Positions 1 to 11,183 of a stretch of 64,000 nt of DNA are shown here, piece after piece. This DNA comes from Cyanobacteriota bacterium (lineage in GTDB: Bacteria; Cyanobacteriota; Cyanobacteriia; Cyanobacteriales; Nostocaceae): NCBI GenBank assembly GCA_046045965.1, contig JBJOKS010000011.1, positions 1 through 64,000 on the forward strand, given 5' to 3'. The notes below the pieces were generated by a model. It saw nothing but the letters and a program-made list of their open reading frames with translations, searched no databases and was not told the origin of the DNA. Numbering within the stretch: position 1 is the stretch's first letter; the number at the start of each line of letters is the position of its first letter. The position numbers were made by a program, and so were the translations under genes.

Positions 1-126
1 AAACCAAATGTTAAGTTAATTGTCGCTCCTTTTCCCGATCTACAACGAGGATCTGACCAGTTTTTTTTCAACAATTCTCTCAAAGCCTCTTGACAAAAGA
101 CTTTCAGGCTTAACTTGTCACCAATG
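1..126 (+). mobile_element. Right end of a probable IS4-like insertion sequence (transposase C-terminus 1-93, terminal sequence ...acttgtcaccaatg) inserted into the resolvase gene
   Basis: Open frame 1-93 (KPNVKLIVAPFPDLQRGSDQFFFNNSLKAS*). Resolvase similarity stops at 127. Read inward, the end is CATTGGTGACAAG, and CAT- termini are typical of IS4-type elements. Family call is from recall; the other end is outside the window. Confidence 0.5.
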
Positions 127-418
127 TATGTACGTTGATTTGCCGATGTACACAAGACTCTAGCATTTCCAATACTTGCAGTGTGGAACGTGCCATACGA
201 CTGACTTCGGAGAAGATGATTACATCTTTGGCATTGGCTGTTTCTGTAATTAGTTGTCCTACTCCCCGTTTCTGCCATTGCTCCCGTCCAGACACGGTAT
301 CTTCTATGAATTGAATGGGACTTAACCCGTGGATGTTGGCATACTCTAATATGCCATGCCTCTGGTTTTGCAGGTCTTGGCGATCGCTGGAAACTCTCAA
401 ATAAGCATAAATTACCAT
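127..418 (-). pseudogene. Serine recombinase/resolvase, N-terminal catalytic part, truncated
   Basis: YAYLRVSSDRQDLQNQ catalytic motif and SEVSRMARS. Ends after about 97 aa with no helix E or HTH domain. Confidence 0.85.
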
Positions 419-1903: not shown

Positions 1904-2621
1904 TTACTTAATCCTATACTTCTGACAAGTTTCCCTAGCACCTCTAGCGGTTTCATCTTGAGCTAAAGTTTCAGGATCATTCAAAGCGGAATGGTAGCGG
2001 AGTCTGTTGCAAGCGATATCTAACCAACCCTGCCAATTGCCAATCCAAAATCTTACTGTTTTGTCTTTACTGCCACTGATTATCTGTTTGCCATCAGGAC
2101 TGAAGACTACTGATTCGACACTGCCATTGTGCTTAAAAGGTGAGCCAATTAGTTTACCTTTCAAATCCCATAAATATATAGCACCACTATCTACCGATAC
2201 TCCACTGACTCCAACCGCAATCATCTTACCATCTGGGCTGAAGGCTAGGCTTCTTGCAGGAGCAGGGAGATCGATTTTTAGGAGTTGTTCACCTTTGAGA
2301 TTCCAGAGTCTAACTGTATTGTCATTGCTACCACTAGCAATCATCTTGCCATTTGGAATAAACGCGACTGAAGTAATGATATTGGTATGTTCTCTAAAGG
2401 TTTTGCCAATGGGATTCCCTTGCAAGTCCCATAGTCGGATGGAGTTGTCCTTTGCGTCAGCACTGCCACTCGCACTAACAATCATTTTGCCATCAGGACT
2501 GAAGGCAACCTTATTTACCTCATCTTGATGGGCTTGAAATGGCGGTTTAAGTTGTTTTCCTTGAAGATTCCATAGCTGAATTTGCCCTTTAATGTCACCA
2601 CTGGCGATTATCTGCCCATCT
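1904..2621 (-). pseudogene. C-terminal WD40 portion of the IS-split nSTAND1-WD40 gene
   Basis: Multiple WD40 repeats (VAFSPDGKMIVSAS...LWD). Joins in frame to the 4987-7551 part once the IS and one target-duplication copy are removed (SPDG|QIIASGD). Confidence 0.9.
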
Positions 2622-2787
2622 GATACTGTTGGCGAAACATTACTTAACATTAGATAGAGGGGAGCTTCGGTGTAATACATGGAATAAGGAAAGGGCTTTT
2701 CCCGTGTATTACATGGGGGATGAAAAAAGTAAGAAGGAAACGCTCTCTTATTAATAAACTAGAATAAACACCTGTGGAGACGAGTAT

Positions 2788-4443
2788 ATGTGCTTACATC
2801 CTTCAGAAATTCCCCCAGTCCCAGAAGAAACGGCACGTGTAGCTGTTGCAGCATTCCCCAAAGGTAATATGTATATGCGTCTGCGCGACGAACTTGGAAT
2901 CTTCTTTCAGGATGAAGACTTTGCATCTGTGTATCCACAAAGAGGGCAGTCAGCACAAGCACCTTGGCGACTAGCGATGGTATTGATAATGCAATTCTTA
3001 GAAAACCTGTCGGATAGACAAGCAGCCTCTTCAGTGCGAGCAAGAATTGATTGGAAATATGCTTTATCCTTAGAATTAACAGATCCAGGCTTTGATTTTA
3101 GCGTTTTAAGTGAATTCCGCGACCGACTAATCTCCGGGGGTGTCGAGCAGCAAATACTAGACAAAATGCTCTCAAGATTTCAGGAATTAAAACTGTTATC
3201 AGCACGGGGAAAACAGCGCACCGACTCCACCCATATTCTTTCCGTAGTCAGAGAGTTAAGTCGATTAGAAAATCTAGGGGAAACTCTAAGGTATGCTTTG
3301 AATGCTGTAGCAGAAGTTGACCCAACTTGGCTCAAATTACTGGCTTCCCCTGAGTGGTACGACCGATATTCAAAACGTTTTGAAGATTATCGACTGCCCA
3401 AAACTGCACCAGAACGAGAAGCATTGGCTATCCTCATTGGGGCAGATGGCTTTCGTTTACTTGATGCCGTCTATGCAGAAACGTCTCCACTTTTTCTGCG
3501 AAAGCTGCCAGCAGTGGAAGTTCTACGTCAAGTGTGGCTACAACAATATCATGCGCCCACAGATAAAATTGAGTTACGCAATGAACAAGACGGACCACCT
3601 TCAGCCGTGAGAATTTGGTCTGCTTATGATTTAGATGCACGTAAAAGCAGTAAACGCACTACTAACTGGACAGGGTATAAAGTGCATCTGACAGAAAGTT
3701 GTGATGAAGATGCTCCTCATATTATCACTCATGTAATAACGACTCCTGCTACCAGTCCAGACCAAACAGTGATACCCTCAATCCATCAAGCTTTGGCTGA
3801 TAAAGAACTTTTACCTGAGCAACATTTAGTTGACCAAGGATACACTTCAGGACCATTGCTTTCTAATTCCCAGAGTGATTATGACATTGATTTGTTTGGT
3901 CCAGTGCCTCTCAATGTCGGATGGCAATCAAAAGCAGGTTTGGGATTTGATTTATCCCACTTTCAAATCAACTGGGAGCAAAAAACAGCCTATTGTCCTC
4001 AAGGCAAGTGCAGTAGCCGTTGGAAAAAAACTCAAGATACCTATGGAAACCCAGTGATTCGTGTTGACTTCCGGTCTTCTGATTGTTCAGTCTGTCCTGT
4101 TCGCTCCCACTGTACCCGCTCAAAAACCAAGCCACGAGGCTTAACTTTACAGATGCAATCTGATTACGAAGTCCTCCAGAAAGCTAGGGAGCGGCAAAAA
4201 ACTGAACAGTTTCAACAACAGTATGCACTGCGGTCTGGGATTGAGGGAACTATTTCCCAAGGGATTCGAGCCTTTGAATTACGCCACTGTCGTTATGTTG
4301 GTTTAGCAAAATCCCATCTACAGCATATCCTCACTGCTGCTGCGATGAATCTAGTACGAGTGTTTGCTTGGTGGGAGGAGATGCCTTTGGCGAAAACGCG
4401 CAAATCACACTTGGCGAAATTGGCAGACCCGATTCTAGCCTAG
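2788..4443 (+). CDS. IS1182-family DDE transposase
   Basis: 551 aa. LSDRQAA..VRARIDWKYAL, QRTDSTH, GYKVHLTE, VDQGY, a Zn-ribbon CPQG..CSVC..C and RSGIEGTISQG motifs. Confidence 0.92.
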   Translation: MCLHPSEIPPVPEETARVAVAAFPKGNMYMRLRDELGIFFQDEDFASVYPQRGQSAQAPWRLAMVLIMQFLENLSDRQAASSVRARIDWKYALSLELTDPGFDFSVLSEFRDRLISGGVEQQILDKMLSRFQELKLLSARGKQRTDSTHILSVVRELSRLENLGETLRYALNAVAEVDPTWLKLLASPEWYDRYSKRFEDYRLPKTAPEREALAILIGADGFRLLDAVYAETSPLFLRKLPAVEVLRQVWLQQYHAPTDKIELRNEQDGPPSAVRIWSAYDLDARKSSKRTTNWTGYKVHLTESCDEDAPHIITHVITTPATSPDQTVIPSIHQALADKELLPEQHLVDQGYTSGPLLSNSQSDYDIDLFGPVPLNVGWQSKAGLGFDLSHFQINWEQKTAYCPQGKCSSRWKKTQDTYGNPVIRVDFRSSDCSVCPVRSHCTRSKTKPRGLTLQMQSDYEVLQKARERQKTEQFQQQYALRSGIEGTISQGIRAFELRHCRYVGLAKSHLQHILTAAAMNLVRVFAWWEEMPLAKTRKSHLAKLADPILA

Positions 4444-4561
4444 TTCATATCTGTTTAATGTTTTGCCCAAAAGCTGATGTAATCTCATTTTTTTTCCATG
4501 TATTACATGGAAAATTACCCATTCCTGGGTTATATTTACTGTGTAATACACGGAAGTATTT

Positions 4562-4954
4562 ATGTGGAAAAGGGATATTCAAGGCAAATTTGCCCTGAAA
4601 AATGATGATTATCGTCAAGTACGCTCTTTAAGGTTGACTGATGATACCTGGAAGGCTTTGGGTATTGCTGCTGAATGTTTAGGCATGACTAGGGCTGATT
4701 ATTTGGAATACTTGATTGATGGCAGTCCCCTCCCAAGTATTACACGGGAAAGTTCAGATTTTTTAGTTCCCACTCTCTCAGGATCTCAGCCAGGTATTAC
4801 ACGGTATCAGGAGTCTCACCAAATACCAAGGCTTTCAGAACTGGAAATTTTACGTGACCGCGTTTTGTCTGAACTCAAGCTGGGTAAGCAAGCCTCTGGG
4901 TATAAAACTGTTCTCAAGGCTCTCAATCGTTTTATCACTGAACTAACCAGCTAG
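4562..4954 (+). CDS. Small IS-borne protein with N-terminal ribbon-helix-helix-like segment (putative regulator)
   Basis: 130-aa ORF inside the inverted repeats. VRSLRLTDDTWKALGIAAECLGMTRADYLEYL has a CopG/RHH-like pattern. Confidence 0.6.
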   Translation: MWKRDIQGKFALKNDDYRQVRSLRLTDDTWKALGIAAECLGMTRADYLEYLIDGSPLPSITRESSDFLVPTLSGSQPGITRYQESHQIPRLSELEILRDRVLSELKLGKQASGYKTVLKALNRFITELTS

Positions 4955-4986
4955 TATCCTGCTTCTCTGAATTCGCCAACAGTATC

Positions 4987-7551
4987 CCCATCTGGGCTAA
5001 AAACGGCAGAAAAAACAAAGTTGCCCTGCTTCATTGGAGGAGCAACCAAGTTACCTTGAAAATCCCATAACAGAAGTGTTCCATCTGCATCAGTGCTAAG
5101 AATTGTTTGACCTTTCGGGCTAAAAGCAACGGAAGTAATTAAACTCTTATGGTGTGTAAAGGGTGAACTAAGAATCGGGGCACCTTCCTGATTCCATAAC
5201 TGTATAGTAGAGTCTGTAGCACTAGCGATCGTCTTGCCATCAGAACTAATTGCAACTGTATTGCCACCTTCTGGTATGGCTTTGGACAGCAAGCCACTCT
5301 CAATGTCCCACAAACGCACAGTGTTATCGCTGGTAATTTGGGCAGACTCAAGCGGACCAAACCATCCACCTACGCTGACCAAGTGTTTACTATCTGGACT
5401 CAAGGCAAGATAGGTAATTCTGTTAGTATGACCTTTTAAGGTTGTCAACAATTGACCATTGCGATCGAATAAAGAAATGTCCCCCCAATCACTTCCGCGA
5501 GCGATGATTTGACCATTTGGACTGGAAATTTCCAAGTTACCTACACTTTCAAAATTAGGAGACTCTTTAAATTTTTCAATGATTGGTGAAGGTGTTATTG
5601 GTTGACCTTGCCAATCCCAGATCTTAAGCACTTGGTCTCCCCGCTCATTCATAATTACAATAAACCGATCGTCTGCACTTAGCTTAAGAAACTTGGGTTG
5701 TTTCTCATCTCCTCTAAAAACGCTACGCTCCCTTGAACGTTCTACTGCTTCTAGCAAGCTAGATTGAGTGATTGTAAATACATCATCATTTTGAAGCTGT
5801 TTTCCCACCCCCAATGCTTGAATTGCCTGAACCAAACCCTGAGTTGGACTAATAGAAAGTTGATTGATTGATTCAGCAGCTTGGGTTCGCACGTCAGCTA
5901 GTTGGGTTTGCCTATCAGCCCGTTTCCATTGCCAGCCAGCAGCGAGAGCAAATAAGACCGCTACTGCCAAGCCACCAGAAAGCCATCGAATAGCCCTACG
6001 TTGGAGACGTACTTTCTCTTTTTGAATGCGCTCACGCTCAACTTGTTTTTCTTTTTCTAGGCGATCGCGCTCACCTTGACTTGCATCTAAAAACTGATTG
6101 GCTTCCTGACTCAAACCACCGAGAACCTGATTAAAGGTTTCATCTTTTCTCAGTTCTAAAGCCTGCTCTAATCGAGAACCTGACCACAAATCCTCATGAG
6201 ATTTGGTTTTCTTCCATTGTTCGACATCATCGTTCAAGCGGTTGCGAAGGGCGATCGCCTGACGATTTTCCTTAATCCAACTATTCAACGTTACCCAGGA
6301 AGTCAGCAAGGCTTCGTGAGCGATCTCAATCGTGCTTTCTTGGGAGTCAGTTACATGATTACTCACTAATAAGTTATGATTGACCAACTGAGTTAAGATT
6401 GTTTGCTCTAGTGGATCGCTAAACTCTGAACGGGTGGCACGTCGGCGAACAGGTTTCCACTCAGTTCCAGATTCTTCATCTTCGCCAATACCCGCTAACT
6501 TCAGAAATATTCTCTGAGCCACTAATTTTTCCGATTCAGACAAAGACTTGTAGATTTGATCTACGTGCTGCTGGAGTGCGCCTCGCACCCCACCCAATTT
6601 CCGATAGTTGGTGATATTGAGCGTCTTATCTTGAATGCTTTGGCTCTGAACTTCTGTTTCCCACAACAGATTTAGCGTGTACTGCAACAAAGGCAAATAT
6701 CCAGCCTGTCCTTGCACGTCATCAATGATTTGCTTGACTAATCCAGTCTCAAATACTACACCATGATGGGCAGCAGGTTGTTCGATCGCCAAGCGCAATT
6801 CATCCAATTGCATTTCTGCAATCATGGGGCGATGCTTATCTGTCACCTTGATTAAGTCGGGATAGGGACTGAGCCGATCCAAAAAATCTGCTCGCATTGT
6901 TGCTACAAGTTTAACCGAGCGATCACCAGCTTTGTCGAGAGTTTTTACCAGTTGCACCAAACTTTTGATGAAGACATCCCGTTTGCTTGACTCAGTGGTG
7001 GTAAACAACTCCTCAAACTGGTCGATGAGAATGAACCAGTAGGCATCTGCTTGTTTGAGCGATCGCATTAACTGAGTTAATGTGTCCTCCTTAGCAATAC
7101 GAGCAATCTGCACTTCTGATTGTTTGTATTTCCCTAACAAACTGGCATACAGGGATTCAAAGGGATCTTGATCGGGAGTGAAAATCAGATTAACAAAGTG
7201 GTTTCCTTGCCTTTCTGCCAACCAAGGAATCAGACCGGCTCGAATCACCGAAGATTTGCCGCTTCCTGACGCACCTAGAAGTAACACCAAATTAGTTTGC
7301 TCTAGTTCATTCACCAATCCTGTGAGGAACTGATCCCGCCCAAAAAAGCAATCTTTGTCTTCTGATTCAAACTTCTTTAGCCCTTTATAAGGGGATGTAA
7401 TGATAAATTTGCGAGTTTTGACTTCTTCAACTGATATCTGGATAATTTGTGTTTGGTTAAAGGTAACACTTTGACTATTTGTAACTGACACATCATGGAT
7501 ACTCTGATTGTGTCCATCCTCACCCAGATTTGAAGGAAATTCCTGTGTCAT
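4987..7551 (-). pseudogene. nSTAND1-type P-loop NTPase + TM helix + WD40 repeats (NLR-like), 5' portion of IS-interrupted gene
   Basis: SPYKGLKKF..FFGRD, Walker A GASGSGKSS, Walker B LIDQFEELF, MRADF, LPLLQYTL and EIAHEALL. A hydrophobic helix and WD40 repeats follow. The restored gene would be about 1091 aa. Confidence 0.9.
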
Positions 7552-8063
7552 GGAATTACCATCCAGGCTTTAGCTACTAAACTTGCCACTTTCATTACTG
7601 GTTCTGCCAGTTCTTCCACTCCTACTAATCCCTTTTTCAAGGCAATTATTGCCTGCTCGACTAAGCTTTTATCGGGTTGGGGCTTTTGTACTTCTTTTTG
7701 AATAGTTTGAATCTTTTCATCTGCTATTTCCTTTAATAAAGGATTAAGGGTACTATTTGTGGCAATCGCCTGCTTTAATTTTTCCAGCACACTCAAGGCT
7801 TCCTGCAAATTAGTATTCTGTAGTTTTGCCTGAGCCTTATTCTGATTGACACTACTTCCTTGCTCTGCCTGAATTTGGCTCAGATCGATCTCACTGCTGC
7901 CTGTAATACTCACGCCACTCATAGTTTGACTCTTAGCAGGAGTTGTCGCCTCCTTGCCAACAGCAGCTAGAACACTGGGGAGTTCGCGTTGAAGTTCCAG
8001 TTTTTGTTCGGGGGTTAGAGTTTTGATAATTTCTAAAATGTCGCTAATGCTATAAGTAGGCAT
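7548..8063 (-). CDS. Hypothetical protein translationally coupled to the NLR-like gene (helical N-terminus, S/T/Q-rich central motif, helical C-terminus)
   Basis: ATG at 8063 (the ORF extends to a TTG at 8096). Its stop overlaps the NTPase start as ATGA at 7548-7551. Confidence 0.8.
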   Translation of the reverse strand: MPTYSISDILEIIKTLTPEQKLELQRELPSVLAAVGKEATTPAKSQTMSGVSITGSSEIDLSQIQAEQGSSVNQNKAQAKLQNTNLQEALSVLEKLKQAIATNSTLNPLLKEIADEKIQTIQKEVQKPQPDKSLVEQAIIALKKGLVGVEELAEPVMKVASLVAKAWMVIP

Positions 8064-8151
8064 AGGTCCAATTACCAAAAAACGAATTGTTGACAAAATG
8101 TAAAAAAGTGATGTGATTTCTTCCCGAAAGAGTTTAGAGGGGGTTTGGTCT

Positions 8152-8175
8152 GCATAACTATTTATTATACGGAAA
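8152..8175 (-). other. Candidate integron attI recombination site
   Basis: Minus strand reads tttccgtataataaata-GTTATGC, a GTTRRRY-like core with one deviation. It lies between a divergent intI fragment and the gene pair. Confidence 0.55.
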
Positions 8176-8318
8176 CTTTCCGTTTAATCTTTTCCTCAAT
8201 CCTGATACATCAGGCATTACAACGGATTCTTGTCTGAATATACGGAAAACTTCTTCTTTACCAACTTATTTAGGTAATATACATAATGTTTCCGTATATC
8301 CCTTGGTGTTATCAATAA

Positions 8319-8460
8319 TTTTTAACATATCTTGCTATCAATGAAAATGTGGCTGTATCAACGCATAAACAAGCACTTCATGCTGTTATTTCTCTCTATA
8401 AAGAGGTATTAAAACAAGATTTAGATTTAAAAGCAGATGCGGTACGTGCTAAAAAAAAAC
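8319..8460 (+). pseudogene. Integron integrase (IntI-like) N-terminal fragment
   Basis: Frame reads FLTYLAINENVAVSTHKQALHAVISLYKEVLKQDLDLKADAVRAKK, matching the IntI pattern FL..LA....V..ST..QAL.A..FLY..VL. No catalytic domain. Confidence 0.7.
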
Positions 8461-8806
8461 CACATAATATTACTATTTTGGAGATGTCTAATATTGTTTT
8501 ATCTGGAAGTCCCTTCGTTAAGCAGTACAATCTATTAGTGTTCCTCAAAGGAAGCGATAGTAATTTATTAGAGTTATTTGTTAGAAGTAAAAAAAATGGC
8601 TAAAGGGTTTGGTACAAAGCCGGAAAAACAATTAGGATAAATCTTACAGTTAATTCCAGAAGCTAAAGCATATATTCCTGACTCACATTTTTAACAATCT
8701 TAAACTTTAATTTAATTTAGTTTGGTTTAGTCCATTTACTCGTTCTCGCTGCTTTTTTATGCTTTGGTTTTTTTGTGGAATATTCAGATTAAGTTTAGCA
8801 TTCATC

Positions 8807-9538
8807 CTACTTTTCAGATATATAAATTTTTAGGTTAATAATTTCTTTCAAACTGCTAAGGTAAGTTAGCAACGCATAGATAAAAGTTACAATTCCTAGC
8901 ATTTCCAGGAATTCTTCAATCACTATAGCACTTAAAGTTATTATCCCCAGCCGTCCAAAAGATACTCTGAAAAACCCACCTACCATTTCCATCCCTAGAC
9001 TTCCGCTAATATAAAAAATTGCGGCAAGCAGGAATAAATATCGAGTATTCTTAGGTAAATCTAGGAAAAATTGGAAATATTTAAATACAAAAAATATAAC
9101 GGCAGGTATCCCAAATATAACCCAAGTATGATAAAATATTGGGCTTAAATTAAATGATTCTCTGAGCGATGGAATAATCAAAATTTCGTGGAGACTGAAT
9201 GCTTCATCTAGACTAAAAACAAAAAATATTAAAGATAGATTTTTCCAATAAATAAAATATTTATCTGTCTTTTTCATGGAAGTAATTACTGCTAACAATC
9301 CCGAAGAAAATAATAATATTAACGATGAATACAAAGCAGGAATATTGAACTCTTCATCAAGGCTAAAGAGTTCGTAAAACCATTTTGAGCTTGGAAATGG
9401 GAACTCGAAAAACCGGAAATAAGCACTTATAGCACCAGTTAGACTAAGACATAAAATTATAATAATTAAAGGCTTTGTAATTTTTTTAGCAGAGATATAA
9501 ATTGGTAACTCTACGTCATGAGTAGATGGATGCGGCAT
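8807..9538 (-). CDS. Hypothetical polytopic membrane protein
   Basis: 243 aa, several hydrophobic helices, FSLDEE..IP, SLDE..HE and EEFLEMLG motifs. Confidence 0.75.
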   Translation of the reverse strand: MPHPSTHDVELPIYISAKKITKPLIIIILCLSLTGAISAYFRFFEFPFPSSKWFYELFSLDEEFNIPALYSSLILLFSSGLLAVITSMKKTDKYFIYWKNLSLIFFVFSLDEAFSLHEILIIPSLRESFNLSPIFYHTWVIFGIPAVIFFVFKYFQFFLDLPKNTRYLFLLAAIFYISGSLGMEMVGGFFRVSFGRLGIITLSAIVIEEFLEMLGIVTFIYALLTYLSSLKEIINLKIYISEK

Positions 9539-9602
9539 ATAAATCCTTTAGTAACATTATTAACATTAAGATTAAGATTAAGATTACGGCAAAAATATCA
9601 AC

Positions 9603-9622
9603 AGTCCCGCAAAGGCAGGACT
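9603..9622 (-). terminator. Hairpin after the lysozyme gene (possible terminator)
   Basis: agtcccgcaaaggcaggact imperfect inverted repeat just downstream of the stop. Confidence 0.35.
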
Positions 9623-9634
9623 ATTCAGATCACA

Positions 9635-10438
9635 CTAATTTATTGGTGTCAAAAACAATTTAGCCTCTGCTTGTCTCCTCCGTCTTAACCCTGCTTCCAC
9701 CTTACTACCAGGGTTTATATATTTAAGAAACGTCACTTCAATTTGATCCCATTGTTTATTTTGCAGAACTCTAGTAATACTTTGAAAACCAGACCTCCCA
9801 TAGAAATTAGCACCTAAGTTATAACCAAAACTTAATATAGCCCCCTGTTGGTTAGCATTTAATTCGTTCCATACAGGAATTTTTTGCAGAGGTGGTAGAT
9901 ATTTTTGCTCTAGCTGCATCATTAACAATTCTTCTGCTTGTTCCTTGGTAATTGTTTCACCTAATTTCCACTCACTTCCATCTTTTTTGCGAGTAGTTCC
10001 CCAACCAATTGTAATAGGTTTACCACCACTAAGAGGATCAGGATAAGCTTTAAGAAATAAACCTTCAAATTCTTTAATCAACGCAACTCCTGGAAGGGGA
10101 AGTTGACCAGATGCACCACCATAAAAACCAGAATTTGAGGTTTGACTAATTTGTTTTGGCGAATTATTGACGGTATTATCTACAGTCTGACTAAGAGTTT
10201 TATTGATAGCATTATTTAAAGCTATTTGAGTTCTTGGTCCGACAATTCCATCAGCTATAAGCCCCTGTTTTTGTTGAAACTGCCTGACTGCTGCTAAAGT
10301 CTTATTACCAAAATCACCATCTATAGTACCTGGATTGAAGTTGAGTGTTTTTAATATTTTTTGCAATTGCTCAACTTTCCTTCCTTTTGATCCTAGTTTA
10401 AGAATTTCATTAGGATTGAGAATTAATTCGGTGGACAT
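9635..10438 (-). CDS. Peptidoglycan-binding domain + GH24 lysozyme
   Basis: N-terminal PG_binding_1 (GS.G..V..LQ..L, IDGDFG..T..AVRQFQ...GLIADGIVGPRT). C-terminal IKEFEG...AYPDP...TIGWG...GLRRRRQAE. Confidence 0.88.
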   Translation of the reverse strand: MSTELILNPNEILKLGSKGRKVEQLQKILKTLNFNPGTIDGDFGNKTLAAVRQFQQKQGLIADGIVGPRTQIALNNAINKTLSQTVDNTVNNSPKQISQTSNSGFYGGASGQLPLPGVALIKEFEGLFLKAYPDPLSGGKPITIGWGTTRKKDGSEWKLGETITKEQAEELLMMQLEQKYLPPLQKIPVWNELNANQQGAILSFGYNLGANFYGRSGFQSITRVLQNKQWDQIEVTFLKYINPGSKVEAGLRRRRQAEAKLFLTPIN

Positions 10439-11061: not shown

Positions 11062-11155
11062 GACCTGGATCTATGCGATCTCAACACCCAAACTTTGTCA
11101 GGACCGGAAGGTAGCAGCAATACGGGATGCTTGTGGTAGGCGTAGTCTCCGGGTC
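11062..11155 (+). ncRNA. ffs: Signal recognition particle RNA (4.5S)
   Basis: Conserved domain IV tcaggaccggaaggtagcagc. Ends gacctgga and tccgggtc pair. TATGAT -10 box just upstream. Confidence 0.9.
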
Positions 11156-11183
11156 GCCCCATTTTTAGGAGTGCTTTGCAGCA

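Follow-up and report, generated by a model that had tools for sequence, protein, structure and literature searches.

A cyanobacterial nSTAND1 receptor and its translationally coupled partner carry matching, co-varying peptides: a candidate amyloid-type signalling module

The stretch of DNA analysed here (the window) comprises positions 1 to 64,000 of contig JBJOKS010000011.1 from a Cyanobacteriota bacterium of the Nostocaceae (GenBank assembly GCA_046045965.1). Between positions 1904 and 8063 it carries two overlapping genes, one encoding a STAND receptor with an nSTAND1 NTPase domain, a transmembrane (TM)-like segment and WD40 repeats, the other a 171 amino acid partner protein. Both proteins contain a short peptide of similar sequence and, across homologous loci, the two peptides co-vary within pairs. 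The best-supported explanation is that the genes form a two-gene conflict module of the NOD-like receptor (NLR) type, in which the N-terminal leader of the receptor and the peptide of the partner interact homotypically. Real functional coupling through the peptide is very probable. By analogy with the bacterial amyloid signalling sequences (BASS), we also think it moderately probable that the coupling takes the form of amyloid-type (BASS-like cross-β) templating between leader and partner motif; amyloid formation, templating and a toxic output are steps that we infer. The parts of the two genes are as follows, with residues modelled by AlphaFold2 (AF2) at low confidence marked by their predicted local distance difference test score (pLDDT) and hydropathy given as the 19-residue Kyte–Doolittle value (KD19).

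7548..8063, reverse strand: partner gene, 171 amino acids; start ATG at 8063, stop overlapping the receptor start as ATGA
7950..8063, reverse strand: partner N-terminal helical hairpin, residues 1–38; AF2 helices 6–14 and 18–38
7842..7931, reverse strand: partner motif region, residues 45–74; 21-residue core at 7869–7931; pLDDT <50 over residues 36–79
7551..7844, reverse strand: partner C-terminal four-helix domain, residues 74–171; AF2 helices 74–102, 108–125, 132–145 and 150–168; like the C-terminal part of PDC-M14B
4987..7551, reverse strand: receptor gene, 5' part, host residues 1–855; the open reading frame (ORF) extends 11 codons into an insertion, to 4951
7447..7509, reverse strand: receptor leader motif, residues 15–35, within the disordered leader, residues 1–38 (7438–7551)
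6193..7392, reverse strand: nSTAND1 NTPase domain, residues 54–453; PF20703, E 4.9e-112
5929..5994, reverse strand: hydrophobic TM-like segment, residues ~520–541; KD19 maximum 1.83; preceded by a coiled, basic stretch
4987..5658, reverse strand: WD40/β-propeller repeats, first part; Pfam WD40 and β-propeller families, residues 632–858
1904..2621, reverse strand: receptor gene, 3' part, WD40 repeats, 236 codons plus stop; WD40 E 5.5e-42

The two genes overlap by 4 nt (ATGA, 7548–7551), which bears out the translational coupling ascribed to them in a preliminary description of this DNA. The partner ORF spans 182 residues, with the actual start at the ATG at 8063 (171 amino acids), matching the starts of homologues, and the long receptor ORF has 866 codons (4951–7551, reverse strand). 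In the receptor the shared peptide reads NQSIHDVSVTNSQSVTFNQTQ (7447–7509, reverse strand) and in the partner SQTMSGVSITGSSEIDLSQIQ (7869–7931, reverse strand); coordinates and translations were exact in the preliminary description, as was its ungapped alignment of the two with identity at seven of 21 positions. Of all ungapped 21-mer pairings of the 53-residue leader with the 182-residue ORF, this alignment (BLOSUM62 score 38) is the top-scoring one. A score of 38 was reached by six of 2000 composition-preserving shuffles of the leader and three of 2000 of the partner, by two of 2000 when shuffling was confined to the Ser/Thr/Gln-rich parts and by one of 20,000 in fixed register, so that shuffled Ser/Thr/Gln-rich sequence, raised at the outset as a possible source of the likeness, does not align equally well (at most 6 in 2000). 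When the 5.3-Mb genome was searched in all six frames with the partner-family profile, the partner was recovered and, besides it, only the receptor leader (E 0.37), a match that is suggestive and, taken alone, not decisive.

The receptor aligns with practically the entire nSTAND1 profile (PF20703, positions 1–378 of 379) at 375.7 bits, the cut-off being 27.1, and is the sole full-length nSTAND1 match in its genome. No Pfam family covers residues 1–53. In an AlphaFold2 model of the first 470 residues (16 sequences) a confident fold begins at around residue 40, with residues 1–38 at pLDDT below 50, and the preliminary description was right to find no N-terminal effector domain: the motif (residues 15–35) occupies the extreme N-terminus, ahead of the NTPase (from residue 54), in the place of such a domain. 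The segment previously read as a TM helix (residues 520–538, KD19 1.83) has hydrophobic equivalents (1.68–2.17) in all four homologues checked.

Near-length homologues of the partner number 37, mostly of 169–174 amino acids. All begin MP(T/K)YS, all are annotated as ‘hypothetical protein’ and all come from cyanobacteria (Microcystis, Anabaena, Pseudanabaena and Altericista, for example), the window partner being nearest to Microcystis-type copies (84–90% identity). At 15 of 18 genome loci a receptor-like ORF, counted as such if it shares the conserved N-terminal region of the nSTAND1 receptor in the window, has its start no more than 16 nt ahead of the partner stop codon or 41 nt beyond it; the exceptions are two truncated partner copies (L016 and L018) and a CHAT-fused one (L017). 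The same arrangement is found at 13 of 15 metagenome loci. At least three of these repeat genome loci; of the two exceptions, one duplicates L017 and the other is truncated. Over both sets together the receptor start ranges from 22 nt ahead of the stop to 41 nt beyond it. Among seven receptors whose nucleotide-binding oligomerisation domain (NOD) was scanned, six were nSTAND1 and one was NACHT. Behind the same type of leader, the sensor end of homologous receptors consists of WD40 repeats (in most), of pentapeptide repeats (L053) or is missing altogether (as in L005 and other 732 amino acid forms). Sensors have therefore been exchanged while the leader–NTPase unit ahead of them stayed constant.

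In an even sample of the phylum, the partner domain occurs in 11 of 401 cyanobacterial genomes, representing 10 of 155 genera and 12 places, and in neither of two genomes of the same genus; the module is a singleton in the window genome. Such a patchy distribution is typical of defence genes. With wider flanks examined, a STAND NTPase with a similar leader was found in the locus at 11 of the 12 places. Its gene immediately follows the partner gene in nine of these 11, and lies directly upstream in L057 and 3.5 kb upstream in L049, which is the same place as L017. There, about 3.5 kb of other genes separates the receptor from the CHAT-fused partner and the motifs still match (score 64); the interval includes a small gene pair that by eye resembles a putative nucleotidyltransferase/HEPN-type toxin–antitoxin system. 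The lone place with no STAND NTPase nearby is L054, where a gene at 7803–9821 (forward strand) encodes a protein of 672 amino acids that ends in the four-helix domain and also has pentapeptide-type repeats and a long hydrophobic stretch rich in Ala, Gly and Val.

Inspection of these loci reveals residues common to the two members of a pair. GRDF, followed further on by VDFSQ, is present in both proteins of L030, and DF(G/S)QKQ in both proteins of L026 and L028. Nostoc-type pairs have QNI..I.IGD.N and FNQ.Q in common, the CHAT-fused partners L050 and L051 share S-Q-.-I-G...SG..N...NA.G..NI.QS with their receptors and the L053 pair is identical at 19 of 33 positions, including AGRD..IDQ. The shared element, first described as 21 residues long, extends to about 25–37 residues in these other pairs. 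Two copies of the pair in a single Nostoc genome (L011 and L013) have near-identical motifs; duplicated pairs have therefore not always diversified.

Co-variation was scored by local alignment of partner segments against receptor leaders. The score of a partner against its own receptor is 103 for L053, 85 for L050, 79 for L030 and 64 for L049, and 38–42 for the window pair. With six motif types, four of the 720 possible re-pairings reach the true sum. With 12 types, none of 200,000 re-pairings does so (721 against a mean of 428 and a maximum of 673) and the cognate is the best match in seven of 12 rows and eight of 12 columns; this test took 12 of the 34 pairs, one for each visibly different motif type, the rest being near-copies or later finds (L051 and L056). 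The within-pair excess therefore points to either co-evolution or conversion, since independent drift from a similar ancestor would give no such excess. The same codon is used at 60 of 147 identical residues and nucleotide identity is 45–57%; as this codon use argues against recent gene conversion, the likeness is kept at the protein level. Both of the checks proposed at the outset, that the motif should be conserved and paired in homologues and that the two copies should co-vary within pairs, thus gave positive results.

What does the partner consist of beyond its peptide? An AlphaFold2 model (17-sequence alignment) predicts helices at residues 6–14 and 18–38, a disordered region at 36–79 (pLDDT <50) and four helices between residues 74 and 168 (pLDDT ~70–82), which places the motif centrally (residues 45–74 of 171) with the four-helix domain after it. 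Pfam assigns the partner to no family at E≤0.01, and relaxing the threshold to E≤5 adds only noise. When 1.84 billion representative sequences were searched by profile, 163 matched at E≤0.001; many of these are longer proteins that align only from profile position ~35–45 onwards, that is, over the motif and the four-helix domain. When 30 longer or odd-length relatives were scanned with Pfam, ten had CHAT (one below the cut-off), two TRADD-like_N (one of them also CHAT) and one each HetE-N, COR-B, DUF488, AbiTii and an antidote HTH; two gave weak sub-cut-off matches only and 12 none, four of these being visibly N-terminally cut CHAT proteins. The L056 partner (147 amino acids) is motif and four-helix domain alone. 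From the longer fusions and this short form it follows that the constant unit is the peptide plus the four-helix domain, the N-terminal part being a slot. The earlier placing of the motif between two helical domains holds for the window partner, where the motif is central; elsewhere the N-terminal helices are variable or absent.

A clue to the four-helix domain comes from the PADLOC profile PDC-M14B, on which residues 65–162 of the partner align with positions 165–258 of 267 (E 1.3e-7; relatives to 4.6e-11). PDC-M14B is covered only in its C-terminal third and the receptor has no PDC-M14A match. The window partner has no AbiTi profile match at E≤1. In protein P0173, however, an AbiTii domain is followed by a region that matches both AbiTi (1.3e-9) and PDC-M14B (4.6e-11), and hhalign aligns the partner family with P0173 (probability 87.9, E 3.2e-6); at the level of sequence, the four-helix domain resembles AbiTi through this one intermediate. 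Foldseek found no match to the partner model in the PDB at E≤0.001, and a wide VIA-align search returned generic four-helix bundles only (top Z 11.6, below the ~13 under which matches of helical bundles are deemed unspecific). YicC (8VER), an entry that has been superposed on AbiTi in a review, scored Z 10.2 and does not stand out. The best match of the family profile in a sequence search of the PDB had E 0.03 and is not usable. ESM Atlas placed the family's own cluster first and a CHAT cluster by structure (TM-score 0.54), with DUF4404 (0.90) and TCAD2 (0.86) as unconfirmed leads. The invariant residues of the family are L96, E124, K127, P130, D131, P155, L162 and W167. A HEPN-type nuclease, an idea prompted by AbiTii–HEPN fusions, is unsupported, there being no Arg or His among these invariants. 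Identity with EACC1, in which nSTAND1 is said to occur, was also considered and rejected: the EACC1 protein has a TM helix and a caspase as its partner, and the Pfam scans gave no such family match.

The preliminary description recognised no named family in the shared peptide. Judged by its composition and, in divergent members, by short cores, it looks like a relative of BASS1 and BASS2. The pooled motifs contain 14.3% Q, 13.0% S, 9.6% N, 8.3% G, 8.1% V, 8.0% A and 7.8% I, with 2.7% K, 3.2% P and 2.7% L. In the accessible parts of the literature, to which our statements on published amyloid and adaptor systems refer, BASS motifs are described as ~25 residues long, enriched in Q, N, G, V and I and depleted of K, P and L (Dyrka et al. 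2020). The BASS screen, as set out there, covered only the C-termini of Bell proteins and the N-termini of NB-ARC and NACHT proteins (Dyrka et al. 2020), so that the present family was undetectable by it. For comparison we used the BASS sequences of the 2021 grammar paper, whose clusters C01 and C02 were equated by size with BASS1 (210) and BASS2 (329). Read by eye, C01 entries run ...SG.A.(V/I)YQAGRD..IT... and the L053 partner ...SGSGNKVAVTQAGRDAKIDQ; QAGRD, a recurrent BASS1 core, is present in the L053 and L056 partners. C02 entries run N-T-I-S-G-(G/S)...V-(V/I)-Q-A... and the CHAT-fused relatives G-N-I-T-I-S-G...V-Q-A-G-G-D.

A mechanism can be proposed along these lines. Ligand sensing by the repeats would oligomerise the membrane-anchored nSTAND1 NTPase, and the leaders gathered in this way would adopt a cross-β fold (BASS-like, in-register). 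This fold would be templated onto the partner motif, and polymerisation would cluster or unlock the PDC-M14B/AbiTi-like four-helix domain, which as the output would bring about cell arrest or death (abortive infection). Any particular role for this domain, membrane attack included, would be a guess. The idea of receptor-to-effector templating put forward in the preliminary description accordingly gains from the pairing, the co-variation and the BASS-like composition, the amyloid step itself remaining one that we infer.

A number of observations weigh against this mechanism. The likeness to BASS draws on composition and short cores read by eye, not on profiles, and five pentapeptides drawn from motifs of the family (in receptor leaders and in Microcystis-type, Nostoc-type and CHAT-fused partners) have no occurrence in the published BASS set; in this comparison the window motif itself had no pentapeptide in common with it. 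The window pair, with its seven identities in 21, is among the weaker pairs, and the partner contains nothing equivalent to the QII(Q)ISV conserved downstream of the receptor motif. In two motif types the cognate has no advantage: L014/L059 score 26–30 (third of six) and L015 scores 35 (second and fourth). A HET-s-type pseudo-repeat was sought in five partners and none exceeded shuffles, the best internal 12-mer repeat being matched by 209–620 of 1000. Folded domains flank the partner motif on both sides and may hinder stacking; in all validated systems of which we know the motif is terminal. Structure searches gave nothing specific for the four-helix domain, and none of its helices is strongly hydrophobic (maximum KD19 1.33). 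Finally, AbiTii-, COR-B- and DUF488-fused versions of the motif and four-helix module exist, and the peptide may serve that module itself rather than a receptor.

Docking without amyloid is possible, if rather unlikely. The two peptides would here form a finite β-sheet or strand-swap within the receptor oligomer, with a fixed number of partners and no self-propagating polymerisation, which would amount to a short linear equivalent of the homotypic EAD/Death-like adaptor coupling of bacterial STAND systems (EAD, effector-associated domain). Coupling, co-variation and disorder are explained equally well by docking, and the folded domains around the partner motif suit a bounded complex. Validated amyloid signalling motifs are described as flexible peptides beside a folded domain when at rest, but a disordered peptide beside a folded domain, as modelled here, would fit any linear docking motif equally well. 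The partner family also falls within the CHAT/TRADD-like_N/HetE-N network, where adjacent genes share adaptor domains, yet neither protein carries an EAD or Death-like family known to Pfam. Heterotypic strand pairing, moreover, needs no likeness between the strands, whereas in-register stacking predicts the protein-level similarity that is kept here, and the composition and the QAGRD and ISG...VQAG cores match motifs that the BASS preprint, in the text accessible, reports to form fibrils and prions.

It is improbable that the peptide is instead a shared site for a third factor (CHAT-type protease cleavage, a degron or a chaperone) through which both proteins are processed together. A CHAT protease directly precedes the motif in ten of the 30 longer relatives scanned, and protease-gated small effectors are, according to the part of a preprint available, established in other STAND-linked modules. 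Against this, the window pair and most others encode no protease, the conserved 25–37 residues far exceed a cleavage site, and a third factor would impose one and the same motif on all pairs, whereas the version found differs from pair to pair. Strongly disfavoured, and very improbable indeed, is the absence of any functional link (low-complexity composition, chance or occasional gene conversion): both regions are rich in Ser, Thr, Gln and Asn, the window pair shares just 7 of 21 residues and two motif types lack a cognate advantage, but the shuffling (at most 6 in 2000), the re-pairings (0 in 200,000) and the codon use, which speaks against recent conversion, all oppose it, as does an arrangement kept across nSTAND1 and NACHT receptors and several partner architectures.

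Amyloid signalling from NLRs to cell-death effectors is established in fungi. The fungal NWD2/HET-S pair, likened here by architecture, resembles the present one in having an NLR with a short unstructured N-terminal motif and an adjacent gene with a matching motif beside a helical execution domain, and the same logic is proposed, from oligomerisation through templating to effector activation. It differs in that the cyanobacterial partner has no two-fold pseudo-repeat and has its helical domain C-terminal to the motif, a mirror-image order. Closer at hand are the BASS/Bell/NLR pairs, with which our pair shares collinear overlapping genes, a motif at the receptor N-terminus and in a small partner, a composition rich in Q, N, G, V and I and poor in K, P and L, and an occurrence in cyanobacteria of filamentous or colonial habit (Dyrka et al. 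2020). The receptor NOD here, however, is nSTAND1, against NB-ARC or NACHT in the published screen, and the partner has no recognisable Bell domain (no Bell profile was compared), its motif standing before a four-helix domain and not at the C-terminus.

Similarities to two further kinds of system deserve mention, together with one to an abortive infection gene. In the Escherichia coli antiphage pair Bab/Agp (BASS11), two genes likewise encode a sensor N-terminus and a small helical protein sharing an amyloid-type motif, and a link to abortive infection is reported from experiment in the accessible account (Ibarlosa et al. 2024). The Bab/Agp sensor, however, is TPR-GreA/B-C-PIN and not STAND, the motif is C-terminal on a Bell-related domain and it belongs to another motif family (Ibarlosa et al. 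2024). The likeness to PDC-M14B (PADLOC) and to lactococcal AbiT, whose mechanism is listed as unknown in the accessible part of a 2026 review, lies in the C-terminal ~100 residues of the partner; it involves the C-terminal third of PDC-M14B only, without a direct AbiTi match or a PDC-M14A-type receptor. EAD coupling, as described in the accessible parts of papers from 2020 and 2021, also places one element on the N-terminus of an NTPase and on separate effectors, with adjacent-gene copies most alike, and shares the vocabulary of CHAT, TRADD-N, HetE-N and nSTAND1 and a bias towards multicellular bacteria. EADs, however, are folded and mostly helical, whereas the element here is a disordered peptide of 25–37 residues with no Pfam EAD match.

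The pair is not described in the literature examined on nSTAND1, EACC1, AbiTi/AbiTii or cyanobacterial and STAND amyloid signalling, as far as the accessible texts go, although Table S2 and Fig. S5 of the BASS preprint (BASS next to CHAT and to other domains) could overlap with the CHAT-fused relatives. In the nSTAND1 literature examined the word ‘amyloid’ occurs in reference lists only, and a search for literature on PDC-M14 found none.

In the window genome itself the receptor gene is split by an insertion, to which the following features belong.

2622..4986, no strand assigned: inserted mobile DNA, 2365 bp; 15-bp terminal inverted repeats, 7-bp target duplication
2788..4443, forward strand: IS1182-family transposase, 551 amino acids; NF033551 E 1.1e-99; DDE_Tnp_1_6 and DUF772
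4562..4954, forward strand: 130 amino acid ORF within the insertion; no family in Pfam or NCBIfam

The WD40 sequence of the long receptor ORF ends after residue 855, with a stop 11 codons further on, and the remainder of the propeller is encoded by the ORF at 1904–2680, from its codon 23. The inserted DNA occurs only once in the assembly; its terminal inverted repeats, 15 bp each, are perfect (2622–2636 and 4972–4986), and it is flanked by a 7-bp target duplication (2615–2621 and 4987–4993). Removal of the insertion and of one copy of the duplication brings the receptor halves into frame, giving a protein of 1091 amino acids, and intact homologues align by tblastn to both parts. The transposase scores 334.5 bits against a cut-off of 270 for NF033551; transposase, terminal repeats and target duplication together identify an IS1182 element. 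With its receptor gene interrupted in the WD40 region by these 2365 bp, the module is unlikely to function in this genome. Inner inverted repeats (2666–2687 and 4491–4512) flank the transposase, the insertion thus exceeding the transposase unit, and GTGTAATACATGG-like repeats of ~19 nt occur at 2666, 2700, 4494, 4537, 4733 and 4790. Given the extra ORF and the inner repeats, the insertion may be a nested or composite element, in which the 130 amino acid ORF (4562–4954) may be a passenger gene.

The GC content falls to 0.29–0.32 in the stretch immediately upstream of the pair (window positions 8000–9500). A 243 amino acid ORF (8807–9538, reverse strand) has no Pfam family and by eye is multi-pass membrane-like. 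Two genes upstream of the pair, a 267 amino acid protein (9635–10438, reverse strand) has PG_binding_1 and Phage_lysozyme domains, and a bacterial small signal recognition particle RNA (RF00169, 57.8 bits) lies at 11062–11158 (forward strand). On the other side of the pair, the start of a 102 amino acid ORF (110–418, reverse strand) resembles, by eye, what we take to be the N-terminal motif of a serine recombinase/invertase, and fragmentary ORFs lie at 691–1389 and 1580–1966. These fragments suggest a decayed neighbourhood rich in mobile elements.

To our knowledge, bacterial amyloid signalling has been charted only for Bell partners of NB-ARC and NACHT receptors and for one E. coli antiphage pair. 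New here are an nSTAND1-TM-WD40 receptor and a non-Bell partner made up of a motif and a C-terminal four-helix domain. If the proposed mechanism is true, it would extend the principle of amyloid signalling to the nSTAND1 clade, to a membrane-anchored receptor and to another effector domain, arranged in reverse order. The naturally co-varying pairs offer ready-made specificity variants for motif swaps, for which L053, L050 and L030 are better subjects than the window pair with its broken receptor. The motif is also tied to an AbiT/PDC-M14 domain. More tentatively still than any of the foregoing mechanisms save the two put last among the rivals, the BASS-like peptide and four-helix domain might together constitute a death module that is portable and triggered by polymerisation, mirroring Bell/HeLo in that the switch peptide precedes the helical domain and does not follow it, and working in trans behind nSTAND1 and NACHT receptors and in cis behind CHAT, TRADD-N, HetE-N, COR-B, DUF488 and AbiTii. 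Were that so, lactococcal AbiT and the PADLOC candidate PDC-M14 would also signal in an amyloid-like manner, and in prokaryotic immunity this form of signalling would reach far beyond the Bell/NB-ARC/NACHT set.

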